64,000 nucleotides of DNA, taken from the IMG/VR virus record IMGVR_UViG_3300042518_001429, positions 1-64,000 of that record; one strand, 5' to 3'. This document shows, in pieces, positions 108 through 23,872 of this stretch. Position 1 is the stretch's first letter; each line of letters begins with the position of its first letter. Both the position numbers and the translations under genes were made by a program. The DNA comes from a virus. The notes beneath the pieces are model-generated. The model worked only from the letters and a program-made list of their open reading frames with translations. It was not told the origin of the DNA and did not search any database.

Positions 108-2012
108 ATGATTCATCAAGCTTACACTTACAATAATGCTATTCCGGGTAATACAACAGGACCGGTACAAGATCAGGCGTTTCCATCAACTACTTTATTA
201 GGGGCGTTTGTCTCCCGACTCCCATATGCTTATCAAATTTTGGACAGTTTAATGGAACGGAATCCTCGATTCCAAGACTTCCGTAAAGTAGCACCTAAGA
301 GAGAAGAGCTCATTCAAGATCAATCCGTCTTTTTAAATGACCCGGAATTGTCTTTTGGTTCCGGTCCCGGTACCCCAGGTGCTTTACAAATTAATAAAGA
401 CTACCAGGCCTTTATCTATGCTAATGTCGATAAGGATAAGACAAGACGTTTACAAGATTATCGCCGTATGGCAGCATTTGCAGAATTGGCTGATTGTATT
501 GACGAGATTTGCGATGAATGTATCGTTAAAGACGAGAATGATACCATTGTTCAGTTTAACTTAAGAGGCACTTATACCAAAGAGGTCAAAGATACAATTG
601 AAAAGGAATATAAGAAGTTTGTAGAGGTATTTGACTTAGAGGATAAGGGCTGGGAGTACTTCAGACAGTTTCTTATTGACGGGGAGTTATATTTTGAGAA
701 CATTATTGTAGAGGATAAGAAGGATCTAGGTATCATTGGTCTTGTTTCCATTCCTTCTGAACTTATCAATCCTGTTTATCAGAATGTTCAGAATGAATTA
801 GTCAAGGGCTTTTTAATTCGTAAGCCTGTTGTCGGTCCGGCTACATCGATGAATCGTAAGGATCAGGAAGAGCTATTCTTTATGAATAAGGCTCAGGTCA
901 CTTATATCAATTCTGGTATTTGGAATGAGTATAAGTCAATTCGTCTGCCCTTTATTGAAAATGCTAAAAGAGCTTATCGTCAGTTATCTCTTATTGAAGA
1001 TAGTATTGTTATCTATCGTCTTGTAAGAGCACCTGAGCGTCTAAGATTTACTATCTATACCGGTTCCATGCCGCCTCCCAAGGCTGAAGCTTATCTCAAG
1101 CGTCTCATGCAGTCTTATTGGTCAAAGAAGAACTATGACACCACACAAGGTTCAGGTGGAAGAGTTACTAACGTCTATGACCCACAGTCCATGCTTGATG
1201 CTTATTGGTTTACTAAAGACGCTCAAGGCAATGGCTCAACAGTAGATACCTTACCAGCAGGTCAGAACCTAGGACAGCTTGACGATCTCAATTACTTCCT
1301 TAAGAAGCTTTATAACTCTCTCAAAGTGCCTACCTCGCGCTTCATGCAGAATGATGTACCCTTTAAGGATGGTGCTGAGATTACAAGAGAAGAATTGAGA
1401 TTTGCTCGTTTCATTATTCGTATTCAGAGACAGTTTGCAATGGGTATTCGCGAGACCTTTATTGCACACCTGAAGATGAAGGGATTCTGGAAGCAGTATA
1501 GACTCCGTGAACGCTCTATTCAGTTAGAATTTAATGTTCCCACATCCTTCATGGCAATGAGGGACCAGCAGCTCTTACAGATCAAGTTTGATAATTTTAA
1601 TACTGCTACTCAGAACGCTTCTATCGCACCTTCTTATGCTCAGAAGTATTACATGCAGTGGTCTGATGAACAGATGAAAGAGAATAGAGAGTGGATTAAG
1701 AAGGATGCTGCTCTTCGTTGGGAACTAGCACAGATTGAAGGTTCAGGCCCTAACTGGAGAGAGCAGCTAGCAGCTCAGGCTGGCGTAGCACCAGAAGGTG
1801 GAGCAGCTCCTAGCGAGCTTGGCGGCGGTGGTGGCGGAAGTGCTGCAGGTGGTTCTGAGATTCCTGAGTTTGGCGGGTCAAGCGCGTCCCCAGAAGCAGG
1901 CGCTGAAGCTGGAGGAGCCGTAGGTGCTGAAGGCGGAGCAGGAGCTCCTCCAGAAGTAGGACCACCCACACAGGCAACCGGGGCTGGTACCCCAACACCA
2001 CCTCCAGCATAA
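108..2012 (+). CDS. gp20: T4-like portal vertex protein (gp20) with G/A/P/E-rich C-terminal tail
   Basis: gp20 motifs: YRRMA..E...IDEI, FLIDGELYF, QLSLIEDSIVIYRLVRAPER, AEAYLKRLM, TLPAGQNLGQLDDLNYFLKKLY.SLKVP.SR, EITREELRF. Confidence 0.97.
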   Translation: MIHQAYTYNNAIPGNTTGPVQDQAFPSTTLLGAFVSRLPYAYQILDSLMERNPRFQDFRKVAPKREELIQDQSVFLNDPELSFGSGPGTPGALQINKDYQAFIYANVDKDKTRRLQDYRRMAAFAELADCIDEICDECIVKDENDTIVQFNLRGTYTKEVKDTIEKEYKKFVEVFDLEDKGWEYFRQFLIDGELYFENIIVEDKKDLGIIGLVSIPSELINPVYQNVQNELVKGFLIRKPVVGPATSMNRKDQEELFFMNKAQVTYINSGIWNEYKSIRLPFIENAKRAYRQLSLIEDSIVIYRLVRAPERLRFTIYTGSMPPPKAEAYLKRLMQSYWSKKNYDTTQGSGGRVTNVYDPQSMLDAYWFTKDAQGNGSTVDTLPAGQNLGQLDDLNYFLKKLYNSLKVPTSRFMQNDVPFKDGAEITREELRFARFIIRIQRQFAMGIRETFIAHLKMKGFWKQYRLRERSIQLEFNVPTSFMAMRDQQLLQIKFDNFNTATQNASIAPSYAQKYYMQWSDEQMKENREWIKKDAALRWELAQIEGSGPNWREQLAAQAGVAPEGGAAPSELGGGGGGSAAGGSEIPEFGGSSASPEAGAEAGGAVGAEGGAGAPPEVGPPTQATGAGTPTPPPA

Positions 2013-2021
2013 ATATAATAT

Positions 2022-2399
2022 ATGGCAACACCGATTTTCACTACTACCCCAGCTTTAACAAGTACATATAATCCAGGAATGGCCGAGACCTTTTCTTGGA
2101 TTCCAATGGAAGGCGCCGGAAGACCTCTATTTGCTAAAGCAGCATATATTGTCGGTGGTGGTAGCGGGGCTGGTGGTGGTAACGGGTTTGATTTAGTATC
2201 TCCAACAGCCATTTCAACAGGTCCTTATTCTTCTATTCAAGTACTTTCAGCTTGTAGAATCTCAGGTTTAACAGCAACTAATGTTTCAACAGCTACTGTT
2301 CAGACATTAACTGCTATTGAGTTGCCAGTTAATTTTACCTTCTCAGCCGTTATTCAAGGTATTAGTTTAACTTACGGCCGGGTTCTTGCTTACAAGTAA
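2022..2399 (+). CDS. hypothetical virion-associated protein
   Basis: Own late promoter; N-terminal AETFSWIPMEGAGRPLFAKA motif shared with 32216..34186. Confidence 0.7.
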   Translation: MATPIFTTTPALTSTYNPGMAETFSWIPMEGAGRPLFAKAAYIVGGGSGAGGGNGFDLVSPTAISTGPYSSIQVLSACRISGLTATNVSTATVQTLTAIELPVNFTFSAVIQGISLTYGRVLAYK

Positions 2400-2426
2400 T
2401 AACGTTTATTCCATAAATATAGGTAT

Positions 2427-2765
2427 ATGACATACGATATACCTACAGCCAAAAGAGGTGATACTTGGGATGGTATTAATTCTATTTGTATAAGTGTCAA
2501 CGGAATACCAGCAAATTTAACAGGTGCTTCAATTAAAGCTGATTTTCGGCAAAAAGTAGATACACCAACAGTATTAACTCTTTCAACAAATAATGGAGGT
2601 ATTGTTATTACTAACCCTACAGGCGGTTTAATACAATTTCCACCTAAGAAGATCGAAATACCATTCGGCACTTATATATACGATCTTCAAGTTACATATC
2701 CTAATGGAGTTGTTAAAACATATTTTTCTGGTACCTGGACTATAACACCTGATATTACTGAATAA
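2427..2765 (+). CDS. Ig-like/BppU-N-like phage structural domain protein
   Basis: GDTW...NLTGA.I....R...YIYDLQVT..NG.VKT...G..TI.PDIT pattern typical of this phage Ig-like family. Confidence 0.65.
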   Translation: MTYDIPTAKRGDTWDGINSICISVNGIPANLTGASIKADFRQKVDTPTVLTLSTNNGGIVITNPTGGLIQFPPKKIEIPFGTYIYDLQVTYPNGVVKTYFSGTWTITPDITE

Positions 2766-2769
2766 TTGA

Positions 2770-3351
2770 ATGTCTGATTGTTTTTTTAACTACACTACTG
2801 CAACTGATCTTGTTACCTATTCTACAAATATAGGCGACGGGATTAATAATGTTTTTACTGTACCACACAATCTAGGTACTAAAGATGTTTCGGTTACAGT
2901 TAGAGATACACAGACCAATCTTTTAGCTTACCCGGCTATTGAAGTCATTACTTTAAGCTCGGTTAGTGTTTCGTTTAATTTTGTTCCTACTTTAACTGCT
3001 TATGACGTTACTATATTTGCAGCTGCTTCTGCAATTAGAGTCGAACCATTTACAGATCGGGTTGTTATTAACATTGATGAACAGCCAGCTCAGAACGTAA
3101 CTGTCAGTGTTAGCAGTGTTGGAGACAATGTAAATGTAAATGTTATAGACTTTTTATCTCAGTGGGGATCTATTATAGGCACGATATCTGCTCAAACTGA
3201 TCTCTGGGCTTATCTTTCTTCGGATAGCGATTTTCAAACTCTGTCTTATACTCCTTCTTCTATCCAAATTTCTATATCTAACGGCAACACAATTACTTTA
3301 GATAACTTAATAACTAAAACCCAGGCCCTTGCCTACTCAATTGCTCTATAA
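2770..3351 (+). CDS. putative tail/virion structural protein
   Basis: GDG....FTVPHNLGTKDVSVTVRD motif common in phage tail proteins. Confidence 0.6.
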   Translation: MSDCFFNYTTATDLVTYSTNIGDGINNVFTVPHNLGTKDVSVTVRDTQTNLLAYPAIEVITLSSVSVSFNFVPTLTAYDVTIFAAASAIRVEPFTDRVVINIDEQPAQNVTVSVSSVGDNVNVNVIDFLSQWGSIIGTISAQTDLWAYLSSDSDFQTLSYTPSSIQISISNGNTITLDNLITKTQALAYSIAL

Positions 3352-3361
3352 ATATTAAACA

Positions 3362-4381
3362 GTGAAGACTCTTGTAACAAATTATACATTTTCAGCCAGT
3401 GCAAAGCAAATTACACTTACAAACTACCCGTCTTTAAGGCTTGATCAGATTCTTCTTATAACCAACGTTACCGATAATGTTATAATTTATAATTTTGCTG
3501 ATCCTACAGCAGGTGGTACTCTTGCAGGAAATGTTCTTACTTTGTTGTATAACACTACCTCAATGTCAGATAGTGACCGGTTACAAATCTTTATTGATGA
3601 TTATACAGTACCTGCTACCGAAGCTTCTCTTACCGCAGTACAAGTTAAAATAGATAATACTAATGTTTTATTAAATGCTTTAACTGCTAAACAAGACACT
3701 TTTAACTTTGATATATCTTCGGTTAATGTAAATACAAATGAACTTGAAGGTTTAACAAGAACTGTTAATGCTAGTATTACAGCAACAAATAACAATTTAG
3801 TAACTTTTAATAGACAGCTTACAGGTCAAGTTTTAGCTTTTAATAATCAATTATCAGGTCAGGTACAAACTTTAAACACCCAGTTAACTGGGCAGCTCTT
3901 TACAATAAATCAAAATGTAAGTTCTACTAATCCCAGACTTTCTAGTATAGATACAAAGCTAACAACTCTTATAAATCAAACTGATGGCATAGAAGGCTCA
4001 GTAGATCAAATTGAAGGTTATATTAATGATGTTGAAAGTACTTTAACAAGTATTAGTAATAACACCATATATTTAAACTCTGCTGAATTCAGTCAAACTG
4101 TATCTCAATTAACAAGTAGTGTTTATATAGGGGAAGGAAGAATTTTTAGTATACAGGGTATTTCTTATGCTGGTTACGATCAGTACCTGCAAATTGAAGA
4201 TGCACCACAAGGCCCTGGAAGTCGTTTTACTCAATTAATAAAAGCAAATGAAAATTTTAATATTGAGTTTTCGAAAGGCTTTTACGGTGAAAATTTATAT
4301 GTTAGAAATAGTTTAACTCCAGTGACCCATACACCCGGTAATAATGATATAATGTTGACAGTGCATTGGCGAGGGATATAA
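3362..4381 (+). CDS. virion structural protein with central coiled coil
   Basis: N-terminal YTFSASAKQITL...ILLITNVTDNVIIYNFADP seen in T4-like structural proteins; heptad-like N.QLTGQ repeats; TATAAATA 7 nt upstream. Confidence 0.65.
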   Translation: MKTLVTNYTFSASAKQITLTNYPSLRLDQILLITNVTDNVIIYNFADPTAGGTLAGNVLTLLYNTTSMSDSDRLQIFIDDYTVPATEASLTAVQVKIDNTNVLLNALTAKQDTFNFDISSVNVNTNELEGLTRTVNASITATNNNLVTFNRQLTGQVLAFNNQLSGQVQTLNTQLTGQLFTINQNVSSTNPRLSSIDTKLTTLINQTDGIEGSVDQIEGYINDVESTLTSISNNTIYLNSAEFSQTVSQLTSSVYIGEGRIFSIQGISYAGYDQYLQIEDAPQGPGSRFTQLIKANENFNIEFSKGFYGENLYVRNSLTPVTHTPGNNDIMLTVHWRGI

Positions 4382-4391
4382 ATAACTAAAA

Positions 4392-5006
4392 ATGATTATA
4401 GACGAAAACAGACCAGAACCCAATGAAGGTAAAGTGACATACACTTATGATCACTTAGATCGTTTGCTTTATAGAAATGTTTATCAAGGAGATGTACCGC
4501 ATTTGAGGCAAACCAGTGAACGCAGTTATATCGGTTCTGGCGGAACAGGTAAATTAGCAGGTCAAAGAAAACCTAAAAAGCTTTTGTATCAAGACTATTA
4601 TACCTATAACAATAATGGCTTAAGATCAGTAAGAAGAATTTATCAACCTATTGTTGAAACTCCTTCATTTTCTCGAGATGAAAACGACTATCCAATATTA
4701 GCAACCAATATAATTTGTAAATCCCCAGTAATTGCTTCCGGATTTATGTGGATACAAGCAGGTGATTCCAATGAAGGAAAAATAAAATTAATGTACAAAG
4801 GTATGTATACAACTAATAAGTTTGTTATTGGTAATAACCCTATTCATTTAGAAGATGATGTTTATTTGTTTCGTTTTCTTGGTAGTAATGCAGTTGGCCC
4901 AATTACATACACTTTAAATAGTAATGCAACTTACTTTGTTAAAGCCTGGGCACAGGTTGAAACTGGAACTTTATTTTCTAAAACAATACAAATTGACGAA
5001 ATTTAA
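4392..5006 (+). CDS. hypothetical protein
   Basis: 204-aa ORF with TATAAATA 7 nt upstream. Confidence 0.7.
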   Translation: MIIDENRPEPNEGKVTYTYDHLDRLLYRNVYQGDVPHLRQTSERSYIGSGGTGKLAGQRKPKKLLYQDYYTYNNNGLRSVRRIYQPIVETPSFSRDENDYPILATNIICKSPVIASGFMWIQAGDSNEGKIKLMYKGMYTTNKFVIGNNPIHLEDDVYLFRFLGSNAVGPITYTLNSNATYFVKAWAQVETGTLFSKTIQIDEI

Positions 5007-5008
5007 CT

Positions 5009-6451
5009 ATGAACGACTCAAGATTATTTACAGACAGTGAATTAAGCCAACCTTTGCCTCCTATTTATAAGGGCAAGGATATAACTATTTGGCCTGGTCA
5101 GCTTGCCCAGTACCCTGCACATGGAAATAGAGGCATTAACGGGAGTTATATGTTAAAACAAGGCAGACCTAGAAGATCAGCTTTACGAAGATATGTTTTT
5201 AGATATGAAGGGGGCAAATTTGTTTATTTGGCTACAAGAAAAGGTCAAAGAAATGGAGGCTTTACTAGTAAAAATGCTGGCACTAATTTAAAAATACAAT
5301 TTAACGTTACTAATCAAGGAGAGTTGTTTAATTCTAATTTTACTTTTCGAGGCAAGAATACAGCTGGTGAAGACGTATGGTCTACTGGGCCTTTAAATCA
5401 GTTTCGTTATGACAGTGCAAATAGTAGATGGGTTTGGGAAACAGCTCCTGCCCCTGCAGCTGGTGCCCCTATGCCTGCTCTTAGCGCTAATGGTTTTTCC
5501 TCTTCAACAACAAACACTCTACCTAATGCAGGAACTATAAACGAGGTGTCTTGGACTTATATTTCTAATCCCTATACTACTCAAACACCTCAATTACCAG
5601 CTACCCTTGTTGCTACACCTATACAGTGGTATAACAACAATGACATAGAAAATCTTAACAAATGGCCTATTAAAAATAAAGATATGAACTATGGAGTTAG
5701 AAAGCATATGTTCTATCATAGATGGCAAGAACTAGACTATGATTATATAGAAGGCGTAAGATTTGATGGCTGGGATTATGGAAACGGTTTGTATATTAGA
5801 CAAGATAGAAATTCTAATTATTTTTATAGAGTAACAAGCATTGGCCCCAATATAGGCATGACTCTTTCTCAAGATGATTATCTTTACTGGGACAATACTC
5901 AGTGGTGTTTATATAATCAAACGGAAGTAGGAGGAGATTGTATTACTAATAATAATACACCTCAGATGTCAATGCATAATAATGATGGTGGACAACTATG
6001 GACTGATAATGGCTATGGTCTAGGTACAGCTTCAAAGCACTATGCCGTTAAACCTGAAGGTAGACCAGATTGTCTTACAGATGATTATCTTAATAAATGC
6101 TTTGCAGGAGTTAACCTTAAACACTATGATACAGTCTTTGTTGAAGTTATGTGGAAATTTGTTTCTAATAAAAATTATAAAAGAGGGGTAAATTATTTTG
6201 ATTCTGGTCTTTGGAATGTAGACTCCTATAAAGGTATGCTAAATTTTGGTATACCTCTTGACCAAATAAGTGATATGGATTGGTGGACACCTAGACCTTT
6301 TAGAACAAAAAGTAATAAAGGGAGAGTTTATAGAATAGGTATACTAGAAGAAGATACTGGTGTTGGCGGGTATGATAAAGTACTTTGGTGTCAAAGAACT
6401 AAAACAATTACTACTAAATATGATAGAGGAGGACATACAGCATTAGAATAA
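5009..6451 (+). CDS. hypothetical protein (W/N/Y-rich)
   Basis: 480-aa ORF, tightly packed in operon. Confidence 0.75.
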   Translation: MNDSRLFTDSELSQPLPPIYKGKDITIWPGQLAQYPAHGNRGINGSYMLKQGRPRRSALRRYVFRYEGGKFVYLATRKGQRNGGFTSKNAGTNLKIQFNVTNQGELFNSNFTFRGKNTAGEDVWSTGPLNQFRYDSANSRWVWETAPAPAAGAPMPALSANGFSSSTTNTLPNAGTINEVSWTYISNPYTTQTPQLPATLVATPIQWYNNNDIENLNKWPIKNKDMNYGVRKHMFYHRWQELDYDYIEGVRFDGWDYGNGLYIRQDRNSNYFYRVTSIGPNIGMTLSQDDYLYWDNTQWCLYNQTEVGGDCITNNNTPQMSMHNNDGGQLWTDNGYGLGTASKHYAVKPEGRPDCLTDDYLNKCFAGVNLKHYDTVFVEVMWKFVSNKNYKRGVNYFDSGLWNVDSYKGMLNFGIPLDQISDMDWWTPRPFRTKSNKGRVYRIGILEEDTGVGGYDKVLWCQRTKTITTKYDRGGHTALE

Positions 6452-6470
6452 AATAATATAAACAAACAAA

Positions 6471-6732
6471 GGCCCTAATCGGATGAATTCGGGGAAACCT
6501 TCCTCTGCGTTGTAGAGATGGCAATCCCGAGCCAAGCCATAAACCATTTTATGGAAGGTGTAGAGACTACTGGAGACAAAAAGGTTTGTCTTAATAACCA
6601 GCAAGAGCGTCCGACAAATAAAAAATATTTGAAGATATAGTCCAACCTGTAGTGAAAACTATAGAACATGTTGCGACGCCAGTACTTTATATAACAAGCC
6701 ACGCGAGTGGGCAGGCTCGGTTCACAAGGGTC
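6471..6732 (+). ncRNA. group I intron-type ribozyme (has P7.1, IA-like), apparently permuted: guide sequence first, 5' splice-site strand last
   Basis: P3 TCGGATG 6479-85/CGTCCGA 6608-14; P4 TTCGGG 6488-93/CCCGAG 6526-31; P5 CTCTGC/GTAGAG; P6a CCATAAA/TTTATGG; P7 G-A-GACTA 6563-69/TAGTCC 6638-43; P7.1 CTGG-AGACAAA/TTTGTCT-CCAG; P8 CAAATA/TATTTG; J8/7 AAGATA; P9 CTGTAGT-GAAA-ACTATAG; P9.0 AAC 6644-46/GTT 6670-72 then omega-G 6673; P1 GGCCCT 6471-76/AGGGTC 6727-32 with G6472.U6731 wobble. Confidence 0.88.
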
Positions 6733-6741
6733 AAACAACAT

Positions 6742-9435
6742 ATGCCATACACAAGAGAATCAGGCTATCTACAGAACATGGTCGAAAATGGAATTACGTT
6801 TTCTGACCGTGATAGAGATGCTGTAGAAAAATTACGAGTATCTAATCCGCAAAGTCTTATCGATACAGACTTTGAGTATTCTTTGCAAAATACAAAATGG
6901 GAATTCTTAACTCTCTGTAATAACTATCCAGGGGTATATGCAAGAGCTAATGAACCAGCATTTACTTCAAATCAAATAACTTCTATACTACCCTCAGGCA
7001 TTGGTAATAGATCAGTAACTGTAACAGTAAATGAATTGCCTCGTTCTCCTTTCAAAATAGGGGATTCTGTAGTGTTAAAAGAAACAGCTAACACCACTTA
7101 CGTAGATGGGGCTTATATTATAACAGCAGTATTATCTCAATATTCTTTTCAAGTAGTTACTAAATCTCCTGCAGCATTAGTAGGTGATCAAAAAACGCAA
7201 TATACTGCACTCTACACTGGTGGCTTCTATACAAATGCCAATATACCTATTGTTGGTGTATCTTCAATTGCTGGAACGAGTGCAGCGTTAATTCAATTTG
7301 CAAACCCTCATAACCTTTATATAGGAACCCCTCTCACAGTGGTTGACTATAGACTATCAGCTGTTCCTTGGTCGGGTAGTTTTGAAGTATCTGCGGTAAG
7401 AGATGATTATAGAGTTATCTATCAGACTTTAACTGGTTCTAATTATTCAACATCAACTCTATTAGTGCCTGCAACAGGGGCAGTATATGCCAGAACCGAA
7501 GGTGTAGCGGTTCATAGATTCTTTGACGGTGGTGTACAAATTAATCCAGGTACCTCAGCTCCTAATGCTCGCATAATGCGTCAAACCAGAAAGTACTTTA
7601 AGTATCAGTCTGGTAAATCAATGCAATTTTCAACCGGTGTCTTGTTTAGACCGGTTTATGAAGTTACTAATGCTTATATTGACAAAACCCTTTATACTGC
7701 TAATTCTGCCACCTACCCTTACTACGACTTCGTTATATCAACAGAACAATATCATGGCTTTGCTGCTCCTGACTCCCATAAACAAGGGGTAACCATAAAA
7801 ACATTTGGCTTTGTATTATCTTCAAATGAAACTAATCCATATAATAAGACATTTGTTGTTAATAAAGTTTTAAATTCTAAAACCTTTAGTGTACAAATTC
7901 CGGTAAATGCTCAATTTAATCCTTTCCCAACAACAGACTTATCTCCCGGTGGTATTGCTTACGTGGAAGTACAAAATTGGAATGATGCCACAGTAAGAAC
8001 AGGTCTTTTTGATGATCAGAACGGAATGTTTTTTGAATATGATGGTAAACAATTTTATGCTGTAAAACGACAAACTACAACACCTCTAGCAGGAACAGTA
8101 AGAGTTGTAAATGGTTCTCCTTGGATTGTAAGTAGTGATGGATTTACTAAGTTTAAAACACAATTAGACGAAAATAATTTTATATCAATACAAGGAATGT
8201 CTTATCAGGTAGGATCAATTGTTAATAATTTATCAGCTACTGTAACCCCTGTTTATCGTGGTCAGAATGCTACAGGTTTAAAAGTTATAAAAACAGAAGA
8301 ATTGAGAATACCTCAATCTGAATTTAATCTTGATAAACTTGATGGCGCAGGGCCTTCTGGTTATGTACTCAATCTCAATAAAATGCAGATGATGTTTATT
8401 GATTACTCCTGGTACGGTGCCGGGAAGATCCGTTATGGTATCAGAGCTGTAAATGGTAAGATAATTTACTTTCACGAAATTTATAATAACAACGTAAATA
8501 TTAAGGCTCACATGCGTTCAGGTAACCTTCCCGGACGTTTTGAAATATCTAGTATTTCAAAGACCGGTACCTTCCTAACAGCTATAAGTTCAAACTCTAC
8601 ATCAGGTTTAATATCTCAAACCGACGCTAATATGCTACCACCTAAAGGCCGTATTGTTATAAATAACGAATACATAAACTATACAAAAGGTAGCACACAA
8701 TCAGGAGGAATAGTTCTAAACTTTAATCAAAGAAATGTCGGGGGTTTAACCTCAGGTGCTAAAAATCATAATGCTGGGGATCAATATGCTTCTTATAATC
8801 AAAACTGTTCACCTGCTTTAAGTCACTGGGGTGTAGCAGCGTTGATGGACGGAGAGTTTAACGAGGATAAGTCTTATCTTTTTACGGGGTCTAATCAAAC
8901 CTCCCTAACTGCAATGTCAGCAGATAAAGCTTTATTGTCTGTTCGTCTAGCACCTTCTGTTGACTATGGTATTATAGGTAAACTCGGTGAAAGAAGCTTA
9001 GTAAATCATTCCACCCTTAAACCACAAACTATAGGCATTGTCACTAACAATCCCTTACAAATTAATGTAAGAGTTAATTGCGAGCCACAAACTTTATTTA
9101 AGAATTTATCAGCCTGGAATTTTGTAGCCAATGGAAGTATAGCACAATACTATGACCATTCTGTTGATGGTTCGTTTGAAGTGGAGGGCACCGGTGGAGA
9201 TCTCATTGCTTCGTTCTTTGTATCTCCGGAGTCTCCTATTAATTCTAACTATCAAACATGCAAAGACTTTAACATTGAAGTTGTACGAGAGTTAACAAAC
9301 AGTATTCTCGGCGGGGATTTCCCTTTTCCGGATGGCCCCGACGTCGTAACAATTAGTGTCAAAACATTAGATGGCGGTTTAAACTATAATGCTGTATGTC
9401 GGGCTAGAATGTCTTGGACTGAAGATCAAGGCTAA
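6742..9435 (+). CDS. large virion structural protein (paralog of 32216..34186)
   Basis: ATG at 6742 preferred over GTG 6652, which lies in the ribozyme P9 hairpin; RQTRKYFKYQSGKS and DKLDGAGPSG...IDYSWYGAGKIRYG motifs shared with 32216..34186. Confidence 0.8.
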   Translation: MPYTRESGYLQNMVENGITFSDRDRDAVEKLRVSNPQSLIDTDFEYSLQNTKWEFLTLCNNYPGVYARANEPAFTSNQITSILPSGIGNRSVTVTVNELPRSPFKIGDSVVLKETANTTYVDGAYIITAVLSQYSFQVVTKSPAALVGDQKTQYTALYTGGFYTNANIPIVGVSSIAGTSAALIQFANPHNLYIGTPLTVVDYRLSAVPWSGSFEVSAVRDDYRVIYQTLTGSNYSTSTLLVPATGAVYARTEGVAVHRFFDGGVQINPGTSAPNARIMRQTRKYFKYQSGKSMQFSTGVLFRPVYEVTNAYIDKTLYTANSATYPYYDFVISTEQYHGFAAPDSHKQGVTIKTFGFVLSSNETNPYNKTFVVNKVLNSKTFSVQIPVNAQFNPFPTTDLSPGGIAYVEVQNWNDATVRTGLFDDQNGMFFEYDGKQFYAVKRQTTTPLAGTVRVVNGSPWIVSSDGFTKFKTQLDENNFISIQGMSYQVGSIVNNLSATVTPVYRGQNATGLKVIKTEELRIPQSEFNLDKLDGAGPSGYVLNLNKMQMMFIDYSWYGAGKIRYGIRAVNGKIIYFHEIYNNNVNIKAHMRSGNLPGRFEISSISKTGTFLTAISSNSTSGLISQTDANMLPPKGRIVINNEYINYTKGSTQSGGIVLNFNQRNVGGLTSGAKNHNAGDQYASYNQNCSPALSHWGVAALMDGEFNEDKSYLFTGSNQTSLTAMSADKALLSVRLAPSVDYGIIGKLGERSLVNHSTLKPQTIGIVTNNPLQINVRVNCEPQTLFKNLSAWNFVANGSIAQYYDHSVDGSFEVEGTGGDLIASFFVSPESPINSNYQTCKDFNIEVVRELTNSILGGDFPFPDGPDVVTISVKTLDGGLNYNAVCRARMSWTEDQG

Positions 9436-9452
9436 TCCCATAAATACTATTG

Positions 9453-9914
9453 ATGAATGTTCCTTTTTTACAGGACACTACTTTTACGGGTTTAATTAGC
9501 ACTAAGAATTATAAGACTTCTCAGGAATGGTCCCAGGCTTATAGTCTTATACAAGCTAATTCTGCAACCTGGGAAGAATCAGCCGATATACTTCCTACAG
9601 TTACAAATTATCTTTCAACAAATAGGGTACAAATATCTGCTTTAACTATTACAAATACTTTTTCAGGTATTAATAGTTTAACAGTATTTGGCAATATTTC
9701 AGCTTCTAGCACAGTATACGCTCAAGAAGGTAATTCAAGTAATTGGAATTCTGCCTATCAGCAAACTTCAGCATCTGATCTTGTACGAAGTAATACAACA
9801 TTTGAAACCCCAACTACCGGACTTTCAACTATTCAAAATATTGTTTCACTATCTTTAGAAACTTATAACAATTTAACCGTTAAATTACCCGGCACCCTAT
9901 ACGTAGTAGTCTAA
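9453..9914 (+). CDS. short fibre-like structural protein
   Basis: TAAATA 6 nt upstream of ATG; WEESADILPTVTNYLST module shared with 62423..63571; C-terminal Y..L..K.PGTLYVV motif. Confidence 0.7.
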   Translation: MNVPFLQDTTFTGLISTKNYKTSQEWSQAYSLIQANSATWEESADILPTVTNYLSTNRVQISALTITNTFSGINSLTVFGNISASSTVYAQEGNSSNWNSAYQQTSASDLVRSNTTFETPTTGLSTIQNIVSLSLETYNNLTVKLPGTLYVVV

Positions 9915-9915
9915 T

Positions 9916-11331
9916 ATGCTATTAACAGATAACAATTATTACCTTGACAATGAGCCAGTTCTTCGTCTTTATAAAGATGATAAACTAGTCTTTCCTGAAC
10001 GAAATTACCCTGTAACCCTTACTATAGATACAAGTAAAACGGCTCCTACCGATCAGTTTTTTATAGGTACACTAAATAATACTGTTTATAATTTTTTAGT
10101 TGATTGGGGTGATAATATCGTAGAAAATCTTACCGCTACTAGCACTGGTGCATTGCCATTCACTCATACTTACCCAGTATCAAATCAACTTTATAATGTT
10201 TATATATCTGGTGCACCTCTTTCCGGGTTTCCATATATGGGTTTTGCCTCTGTTAATGTAAGAGAAAGGGTGATAAAAGCTATTATAAACGACGATAACC
10301 ATTTTACTCAGTTTAATACTACTTTTCAAGGGTGTATAAATTTAAGAAAATTTACAGCAGGTGTATTTCCAAGCGCGGTTAACTTTGCAACTGCATGGCA
10401 AAATTGTTCTTCGCTAACAGAATTTCCTGCTATTAGTAGTCTAAGAGGTACTAGTTTTTCTCAAACATGGCGGGGATGTACAAGTTTGCAAAGCTTTCCC
10501 TTGATAGAAATTCCTGATACAGCTACGAATATCGCAGGGGCGTGGTTTGGTTGCACTTCTCTTACTTCATTTCCTGCTATAAATTTTAAAAATGTTGTAA
10601 CTTTTAGTATAGGTAGTGCTATAGGTACCTGGCAAAACTGTAGTTCATTAACAACATTTCCAAAGATTACATGTAATAGTGCTAATAATATTGCATCAGC
10701 CTGGGTAAATTGTACTTCTTTATTATCATTTCCGGATATAGAATTTGGAGGTTCAAGCTTGACCCTCACCAACACTTGGGGTAATTGCAGATCTTTAAGA
10801 AACTTTCCAAATTTAAATTTAAGTCGTGCAATTACTCTTATTTCTACTTGGCAAGGTTGCGTTTCTCTCACTTCATTTCCGCCTTTAAATTTATCTGCAG
10901 GTACTAATTTTTCTAGCGCCTGGAATAGCTGTTCATCCCTTAACACTTTCCCTCTTATTACCTGTATAAATGCTACTACATTAGGAAATGCTTGGTTGAG
11001 TTGTTTGTCTCTAACCTCTTTTCCTCCTATTAGTTGCCCAAATGTAACTAATTTTAGTAACACGTGGAGTAACTGTATATCATTATCGGTCTTTGAATTT
11101 AATATAGATACATTTTCAAAAGTAGCAACTACAGGTGGCACTAATTGTTTTTTAAATGTTACTCTACCTACACAGACTTGGTCTTCTATACTTACTTCCA
11201 TATCAGCCACAAATACTAACTTAAATGTCACATTTCATGGAGGCAACTCAAAACGTAATGCTGAAGGTACAACCGCTTATGCTTATCTTACAGGCCGAGG
11301 CTGGTCTATAACTGATGGAGGGCCTGAATAA
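9916..11331 (+). CDS. BspA/DUF285-like leucine-rich repeat protein with N-terminal PKD-like domain (putative adhesin/fibre tip)
   Basis: About 10 repeats of W..C.SL..FP.I; VDWGD..HTY PKD-like motif; C-terminal GWSITDGG. Confidence 0.8.
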   Translation: MLLTDNNYYLDNEPVLRLYKDDKLVFPERNYPVTLTIDTSKTAPTDQFFIGTLNNTVYNFLVDWGDNIVENLTATSTGALPFTHTYPVSNQLYNVYISGAPLSGFPYMGFASVNVRERVIKAIINDDNHFTQFNTTFQGCINLRKFTAGVFPSAVNFATAWQNCSSLTEFPAISSLRGTSFSQTWRGCTSLQSFPLIEIPDTATNIAGAWFGCTSLTSFPAINFKNVVTFSIGSAIGTWQNCSSLTTFPKITCNSANNIASAWVNCTSLLSFPDIEFGGSSLTLTNTWGNCRSLRNFPNLNLSRAITLISTWQGCVSLTSFPPLNLSAGTNFSSAWNSCSSLNTFPLITCINATTLGNAWLSCLSLTSFPPISCPNVTNFSNTWSNCISLSVFEFNIDTFSKVATTGGTNCFLNVTLPTQTWSSILTSISATNTNLNVTFHGGNSKRNAEGTTAYAYLTGRGWSITDGGPE

Positions 11332-23407: not shown

Positions 23408-23424
23408 AAATTTTAATTTGAAAG

Positions 23425-23872
23425 TGGAGGTGAGGGGAGTTGAACCCCTGTCCAAATAATTTGCTCTAAAAGGTCTACATGTTTTAGTATCTTTAGCATT
23501 TCAGCCACCATACGGTGACGAAGACTTTAGGCTGCTTGGCGATACTAACCGAGTTTTTAGTCTGCCTATAGACATTAGCGCACATCTACATACGGAGGAT
23601 TCTTTTTGTTACGTTGATACAGTCCACAATTCAACAACCTCTATAATCAAAGTATCCTTAGAGGATCTGGATACTAGGGTTTAGGCTGCCATTAAGCAGT
23701 AGTTTTCTTCAGGAGCGAAGAATTCTACTACATTAGACCAAGCGGACTTAACAGCTTCAACAGCAGAGGTAATAGCCTTTGCGTTTAGTTTTTAATCGAT
23801 TTTAACGAGGCCATCGATCAACCTCGACATGCACTTTTAGTCTCAACTATCTGTCGAAACCGGTACACCCCC
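23425..23872 (-). ncRNA. ssrA: tmRNA (phage-encoded), about 448 nt, CCA not encoded
   Basis: 5' GGGGGTG-TACCGGTTTCGAC; 3' GGAC-AGGGG-TTCAACT-CCCCT-CACCTCC-A; G3.U70 alanine identity pair; pk1-like CGAGG/CCTCG; tag frame 23782-23681 ending YCLMAA-TAA. Confidence 0.95.

Follow-up and report, generated by a model that had tools for sequence, protein, structure and literature searches.

Group I ribozymes are the textbook selfish introns. The small group I introns of phages that carry a P7.1 element belong to class IA; those of T4 td, nrdB and nrdD are of this type. In a conventional intron the guide is preceded by the splice-site strand, with which it forms the P1 hairpin, often accompanied by P2, and the exons of the interrupted gene are rejoined. 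The lariat-capping ribozyme GIR1 works without P1: it forms a 3-nt lariat by branching, contains a P2-P2.1-P10 junction and resides inside a twin-ribozyme intron before an endonuclease gene. GIR1 and the c-di-GMP-dependent ribozyme of Clostridioides difficile are both derived from group I and act on a message that follows them, whose 5' end or start of translation they shape (PMC8637638; PMC3984707). The C. difficile element keeps the normal order of splice sites and requires an upstream aptamer.

The order of the parts can be changed. In engineered STS and cis-splicing constructs it reads guide, ribozyme, terminal G, insert, target, and these RNAs circularise; P1 alone is enough for the reaction, which is enhanced by helper duplexes near P9.0 and the terminal G (PMC10457212; PMC11417360). 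They are laboratory designs with long cargo. A natural case is the giant group I intron ND5-717 of coral mitochondria, which is removed by back-splicing and yields a circular exon RNA (Chi et al. 2019, PMC6545197). It interrupts a gene, back-splicing restores the ND5 frame, and, rather than forming a compact free-standing element, it is permuted at the level of the primary transcript, which is made from a circular genome. Bacteria also have group II introns with a natural circular permutation, which stand alone, leave ORFs intact and give off circular RNAs (Roth et al. 2021, PMC8637638); they belong to another ribozyme class, use branching chemistry and are permuted at the level of domains. 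For the locus described here, ND5-717 is the nearest natural case and the permuted group II introns are the nearest in concept. A preliminary description of this locus had been aware of no described natural example. This stands for phages and bacteria, for which full-text searches of the literature yielded none, but not in general, since ND5-717 back-splices from a permuted precursor (PMC6545197).

The window, i.e., the whole stretch of DNA analysed, comprises positions 1 to 64,000 of the IMG/VR virus record IMGVR_UViG_3300042518_001429. The record is 91.9 kb long, and its completeness is estimated by CheckV at 43%. In one of its intergenic spacers, the window contains a permuted, guide-first group I ribozyme sequence (Table 1). 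We read it as a functional group I ribozyme whose P1 is naturally permuted, placed in the spacer between two co-transcribed late genes, and would give this reading, from the sequence data, a probability of roughly two in three.

Table 1. The guide-first element and its two neighbouring genes, in positions of the window
Feature	Position	Strand	Remarks
Upstream gene, 480 aa	5009..6451	+	TAA 6449-51, 19 nt 5' of the guide; homologues directly precede the ribozyme in at least 20 loci
Guide (internal guide sequence) GGCCCU, 5' strand of permuted P1	6471..6476	+	wobble G is G6472; G.U in 41/41, flanking pairs covary
Group I catalytic core P3, P4-P6, P7, P7.1, P8, J8/7, P9; P2 absent	6479..6664	+	RF00028 77.7 bits; RNAalifold
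P3, 7 bp	6479-85 with 6608-14	+	
P4	6488-94 with 6525-31	+	
P6	6537-43 with 6548-54	+	
P7	6565-69 with 6638-42	+	
P7.1	within 6570-6601	+	
P8	6615-19 with 6627-31	+	
J8/7 AAGAUA	6632-37	+	
J7/9 AAC, 5' strand of P9.0	6644..6646	+	partner GUU 6670-72
P9, loop GAAA	6647-53 with 6658-64	+	
AUGUUG, 3' strand of P9.0 (6670-72) and 5' strand of the closing helix	6668..6673	+	ends in terminal G6673
Enclosed 58-nt segment, predicted circle	6674..6731	+	hairpin CCAC-GCGA-GUGG 6699-6710
Target AGGGUC, permuted P1	6727..6732	+	predicted cut U6731/C6732; U6731 opposite G6472
CAACAU, 3' strand of the closing helix	6736..6741	+	abuts the start codon
Downstream gene, 897-aa virion structural protein (phrog_5838)	6742..9435	+	starts 10 nt past the predicted cut

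All ORFs from 3362 to 11331 run on the + strand. The stop of the 480-aa ORF is separated from the ATG of the 897-aa ORF by a gap of 290 nt, in which matches to promoters or terminators are not above chance. In Pfam and PHROG the upstream ORF was without a match. The downstream protein has homologues among the virion proteins, about 1,000 aa long, of T4-like cyanophages. The triad of a homologue of the 480-aa ORF, the ribozyme and the virion gene recurs in at least 20 loci, where the homologues of the flanking genes end and start at the same positions. Both flanking ORFs are complete and the ribozyme splits no gene; in the strict sense it is thus not a group I intron. Nor did the flanking ORFs match any endonuclease-like family in Pfam or PHROG. 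That the element interrupts no gene and comes without a homing endonuclease, as had been proposed beforehand, is therefore supported.

The core is matched by the Rfam family RF00028 at 6435-6664, with 77.7 bits (E 5e-18; gathering threshold 50). It is the sole group I match in the record, and the P1/P2 portion of the model remains unmatched. Between 6300 and 6900 no other Rfam family appears at E values up to 1, and no aptamer family. The hallmarks of the family are present: the P3-P9 core with its P3/P7 pseudoknot and J8/7, a P1 with U.G at the reactive U, albeit in permuted order (G6472.U6731), and a terminal G preceded by P9.0, as the GUU before G6673 pairs with the AAC of J7/9. The preliminary description had claimed a complete core in a gap of about 290 nt, foreseen an RF00028 match that lacks its 5' part, and denied any upstream P1 exon and any P2. 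All this agrees with what we found: the elements it named lie at its coordinates or within 1 nt of them, the guide has no partner upstream, and P2 is absent. A conventional P1 was considered and rejected, as AGGGY does not occur upstream and the duplexes of the guide with upstream sequence are weak. In one relative (L002) an upstream match to the guide falls inside conserved Arg-Gly-Gly codons and was discarded as chance.

How does the element compare with the described systems? With conventional introns it shares the core, including an identical 19-mer across J6/7-P7-P7.1, as well as P7.1, P9, P9.0 and the terminal G. Conventional relatives are found in tRNA genes (L005, L010, L022, L048) and, according to a by-eye reading of the exon translation, in a ribonucleotide-reductase-like gene (L015, L019, L021, L039). 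Unlike these introns, our element has its target strand past the terminal G, lacks P2 and leaves genes intact. With GIR1 and the C. difficile ribozyme it would have in common that a group I-derived RNA serves a downstream message instead of repairing a gene. It is, however, not a GIR1, since it has a P1-type helix with G.U, matches RF00028 only and has no endonuclease-like family next to it; nor is it of the C. difficile type, since 6300-6900 contains no aptamer family and the order of the splice sites is reversed. The order is the same as in the engineered constructs and is kept in 41 sequences, and the closing helix described below parallels their helper duplexes. In contrast to these designs, the element is natural, its insert is a non-coding segment of 58 nt, and it is embedded in an operon, so that the predicted cutting would also separate two messages. 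Like ND5-717 it is a natural group I ribozyme with a permuted precursor, the circular product here being predicted from sequence. With the permuted group II introns it shares the character of a stand-alone permuted ribozyme that interrupts no ORF.

Within the window, the guide GGCCCU pairs with AGGGUC, which begins 54 nt past G6673, and the G.U of this helix is G6472.U6731. No copy of AGGGYY is seen on the + strand from 805 to 6727. In the window as a whole the motif is not enriched (77 observed, 92.5 expected), and a lone match of 6 bp would be weak evidence. The minimum-energy and the centroid fold of 6465-6745 both include the GGCCCU/AGGGUC helix, with z = -3.7 relative to shuffled sequences. 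The enclosed segment itself contains no AUG when read by eye, and its structure is not unusual (z = 0.54). Judged by the homologues, which provide the deciding evidence, the pairing of guide and target is not due to chance.

Homologues were searched by exact-pattern scans with two core motifs over viral, genome and metagenome contigs. The scans returned conventional introns and many guide-first elements. Altogether, 41 distinct guide-first, target-last ribozymes were recovered, among them one in the cultured Flavobacterium phage immuto. The immuto element, at about 145,030-145,320 of MW353175, was found by blastn and is likewise intergenic; its guide is GGUCCU and its downstream strand AGGAUC, a double change that preserves both the pair and the G.U. 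The 41 sequences were aligned with flush ends, from 3 bases before the wobble G to 3 after the reactive U. When target, terminal G and closing helix were called fully automatically, AU-rich sequence gave rise to many spurious matches.

All 41 aligned sequences keep the G.U wobble. Guide position 1 and the nucleotide after the cut form GC in 22, UA in 14, CG in 2 and GU in 1 of the sequences and are unpaired in 2. The pair of guide position 3 is CG in 31 and UA in 7; that of position 5 is CG in 32, GC in 2, UG in 2 and UA in 1. P1 is only 5-6 bp long, and position 6 is unpaired in 17/41. Its covariation score amounts to 0.309, versus 0.151 after shuffling (0/500) and at most 0.105 in slid registers. 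Since the target cores were found by complementarity to the invariant core of the guide, only the flanking pairs are unbiased. On the core tree, the flanking pair next to the cut switched independently 2-3 times if only well-supported branches are counted and 5-6 times if all are, which is too few for a sign test at 0.05; all of these switches are concordant, and every change observed at guide position 1 is matched in the target. RNAalifold, unprompted, predicts the permuted P1 together with P3, P4, P6, P7.1, P8 and P9, and 32 of the 47 consensus pairs show compensatory changes. The columns of the catalytic core (J6/7-P7, J8/7, P7) are invariant across the 41. The pairing with its U.G wobble, first proposed from the window, and the covariation that was to be looked for between 6471-76 and 6727-32 are thus both recovered in the family, the wobble being kept and the pairs beside it compensated. 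The permuted layout is very probably real and under selection.

On the core tree, most guide-first forms fall into one supported set together with conventional gene introns, which nest among them, and a second guide-first group sits elsewhere; because of this, the permutation may have arisen once or several times.

A second long-range helix was detected in the family. Here 5-8 bases ending at the terminal G pair with bases located 2-6 nt past the cut. In the window this closing helix is made from AUGUUG 6668-73 and CAACAU 6736-41 and directly abuts A6742 of the start codon; it is present in both the local minimum-energy fold and the centroid fold. The counterparts are AAAAGUCG with UGGCUUUU in L033, UAUGUGC with GCACAUA in L050 and AAGUGA with UCACUU in L066. 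Pairing with the own partner yields -6.38 kcal/mol, as compared to -5.24 kcal/mol with crossed partners (0/5000 permutations). Both the closing helix and P9.0 need GUU 6670-72 and are, in consequence, mutually exclusive.

The terminal G was taken as the 3'-most G of the closing helix, P9.0 not being used for the choice. At the G so chosen, P9.0 is fully paired in 16/41, versus 16 of 286 other Gs in range (5.6%). The class C/D set, to which the window and its relatives belong, shows six different fully paired P9.0 combinations. In most class D relatives with a 21-26-nt insert 2 of 3 bp are formed; the relatives of the immuto type (class F) form no more than 1-2 of the 3. P10 comprises at most 1 bp. 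The proposed exchange of partners, in which G6471 would pair in turn with C6732 and C6674, has partial support in the family, guide position 1 being paired with the nucleotide after the cut in 39/41 and with the one that follows the terminal G in 30/41.

From these elements a sequence of events can be proposed. The closing helix would keep the target near the core, while the guide pairs with AGGGUC. Free guanosine or GTP would then attack between U6731 and C6732, and the downstream message would be freed, carrying an extra G at its 5' end and a leader of 10 nt, its start region being released. Thereafter the closing helix would open, GUU 6670-72 would switch to P9.0 and G6673 would enter the G site. 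Finally, the 3'-OH of U6731 could attack at G6673/C6674, which would yield a 58-nt circle from 6674-6731, and the upstream message would end in the folded ribozyme. Cutting at U6731/C6732 we consider likely; for the formation of the circle the chances appear evenly balanced. Given at least 41 related phage sequences in which the layout persists along with compensating substitutions, the most likely action of the element is to cut the message immediately ahead of the next gene.

The surroundings of the element were compared across relatives. In every locus examined, the guide starts 10-33 nt past a stop codon on the same strand. The predicted cut lies 0-12 nt before AUG in the class of the window and 24-324 nt before it in other classes. 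The enclosed segment measures about 16 to 77 nt where its length was taken and is longer in three more sequences; with inserts so variable, the terminal G and the AUG stand in no conserved frame to each other. In immuto a terminator-like hairpin is all that follows the predicted cut, which implies that release of a downstream message cannot be a universal role. With inserts of 16-22 nt, or with a cut 0-12 nt before AUG, it may be cutting of the mRNA that is selected and not the circle. The flanking proteins of the other classes gave almost no PHROG matches.

The remaining debate concerns what the conserved layout is for. A one-step processing ribozyme would suffice to separate the cistrons and to set the 5' end of the virion message by the cut at U6731/C6732; the terminal G and P9.0 would then be unused relics and no circle would be made. 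The inserts of just 16-22 nt in relatives, the weak P9.0 of the immuto type, the proximity of cut and AUG in the window's class and a P10 of at most 1 bp are in line with this. Nevertheless, it appears unlikely: class C/D keeps the terminal G and P9.0 by six fully paired combinations, guide position 1 finds a partner in the nucleotide behind the terminal G in 30/41, and engineered constructs of the same order do circularise (PMC10457212; PMC11417360). Could the RNA dispense with chemistry altogether, and merely stabilise the 3' end of the upstream message or occlude the downstream start? The closing helix abuts the AUG and the element always lies 3' of a stop codon, both in keeping with such a role. 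A mere scaffold, however, has no need of a G.U that occupies one fixed guide position in all 41 sequences, nor of invariant J6/7-P7, J8/7 and P7 columns, and the 19-mer is common to conventional introns of tRNAs and genes; a non-catalytic role is therefore very improbable.

Two further explanations start from the missing 5' exon. It might reside elsewhere and be joined by conventional or trans-splicing, one candidate being an N-terminal domain at 3362-3646, 3.1 kb upstream. Residues 4-106 of S-PM2 p175 match residues 2-93 of ORF 3362 (E 7e-19), residues 93-178 match residues 15-100 of the 6742 ORF, which count as 45-130 in the translation of 6652-7200, and the reading frame is open from 6652. 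Yet the + strand is free of AGGGY between 805 and 6727, insert lengths vary and so does the frame between terminal G and AUG, the N-domain ORF of L049 lies downstream of the ribozyme, and the covarying partner of the guide is the downstream site, all of which makes this explanation hardly credible. Alternatively, the 5' exon might have been lost and the element be a decaying remnant, GGCCCU and AGGGUC matching by chance. P2 is indeed missing and a lone 6-bp match is unremarkable, but decay is difficult to reconcile with compensatory changes in 32/47 consensus pairs, with a layout kept in several sequence lineages and gene contexts, and with target changes that match all changes at guide position 1. 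We regard a remnant as extremely improbable.

The functional permuted ribozyme thus remains our preferred reading. Taken to its full extent, it would mean that a permuted group I ribozyme, domesticated, serves several phage lineages in making mRNA ends by RNA alone. The closing helix would lock the start of the virion gene, attack by GTP would free the message with a GTP-derived 5' end and a leader of 0-12 nt, the folded ribozyme would cap the upstream message, a tiny circle would be shed, and translation of late genes would come to depend on the GTP level and on how the RNA folds. This comprehensive version is tentative and, as a whole, rather doubtful. If the functional reading is true, the element would be the second natural self-splicing ribozyme rewired by permutation, after the permuted group II introns, and a natural counterpart of the constructs used for therapeutic circular RNA; RNA-catalysed cutting of mRNA would join the ways by which phages process late operons. 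As phage immuto is cultured, the prediction is directly testable.

Some relatives deserve mention in their own right. One contig, IMGVR_UViG_3300007214_000017, harbours two guide-first ribozymes (L033:2186-2463 and L038:11816-12032), each before a paralogous virion-protein gene. In L165:3627-3869 the predicted cut falls right before the A of the start codon (GGGU/AUGCCC), and cutting would accordingly leave a leaderless message. The target of L199:882-1087, GGGGUC, is placed in a hairpin loop (UAUAGGGC...GCCCUAUA), not beside a helix with the terminal-G strand. Second, fully Watson-Crick complements of the guide occur inside the enclosed segments of L002 (~6380-6420, - strand; GGAGGGCG) and L049 (~1130-1150, + strand; GGGGGCAU) and could compete with the true target. 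In L013, L018/L045, L140, L149, L189 and L209 the same core is closed by a fully complementary helix of 11-16 bp without G.U, which joins the 5' leader to a strand about 110 nt past P9 and contains one A/C mismatch in L013; these closed cores may represent another variant, or else a site of double-strand processing.

The element is also a source of annotation errors. Gene callers put spurious ORFs inside it, and the gathering threshold of Rfam misses at least the immuto copy, which RF00028 does not match at that threshold. The immuto core holds an annotated hypothetical CDS of 44 aa, immuto26A_226 (MW353175; L001 4005-4139). In the window, GTG 6652 lengthens the virion ORF by 30 codons (6652-6741); a coding role of this stretch was rejected because the frame is not conserved.

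As to the S-PM2 p175-type protein, the two matches given above imply that the N-terminal domain of the cyanophage protein is encoded here on a separate ORF 3.1 kb upstream. The domain, of about 93 aa, opens a 339-aa ORF at 3362-4381 (+), and the rest of the protein is found in 6742-9435 (+); L044 and L052 show the same split between N-domain and body. Splicing of the ORF 3362 N-domain to the 6742 body was rejected, as there is no guide partner at the domain end, the frame is not conserved and the order is reversed in L049. Going by the sequences, we take the split to reflect shuffling of domains in a module of fibre or baseplate genes.

Finally, the window contains a second RNA of possible interest on its - strand. 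Rfam reports a full-length tmRNA at 23422-23872, with 137 bits and a 102-nt insertion, whereas ARAGORN finds neither tmRNA nor tRNA in the window; this may be a phage-borne tmRNA of unusual form.
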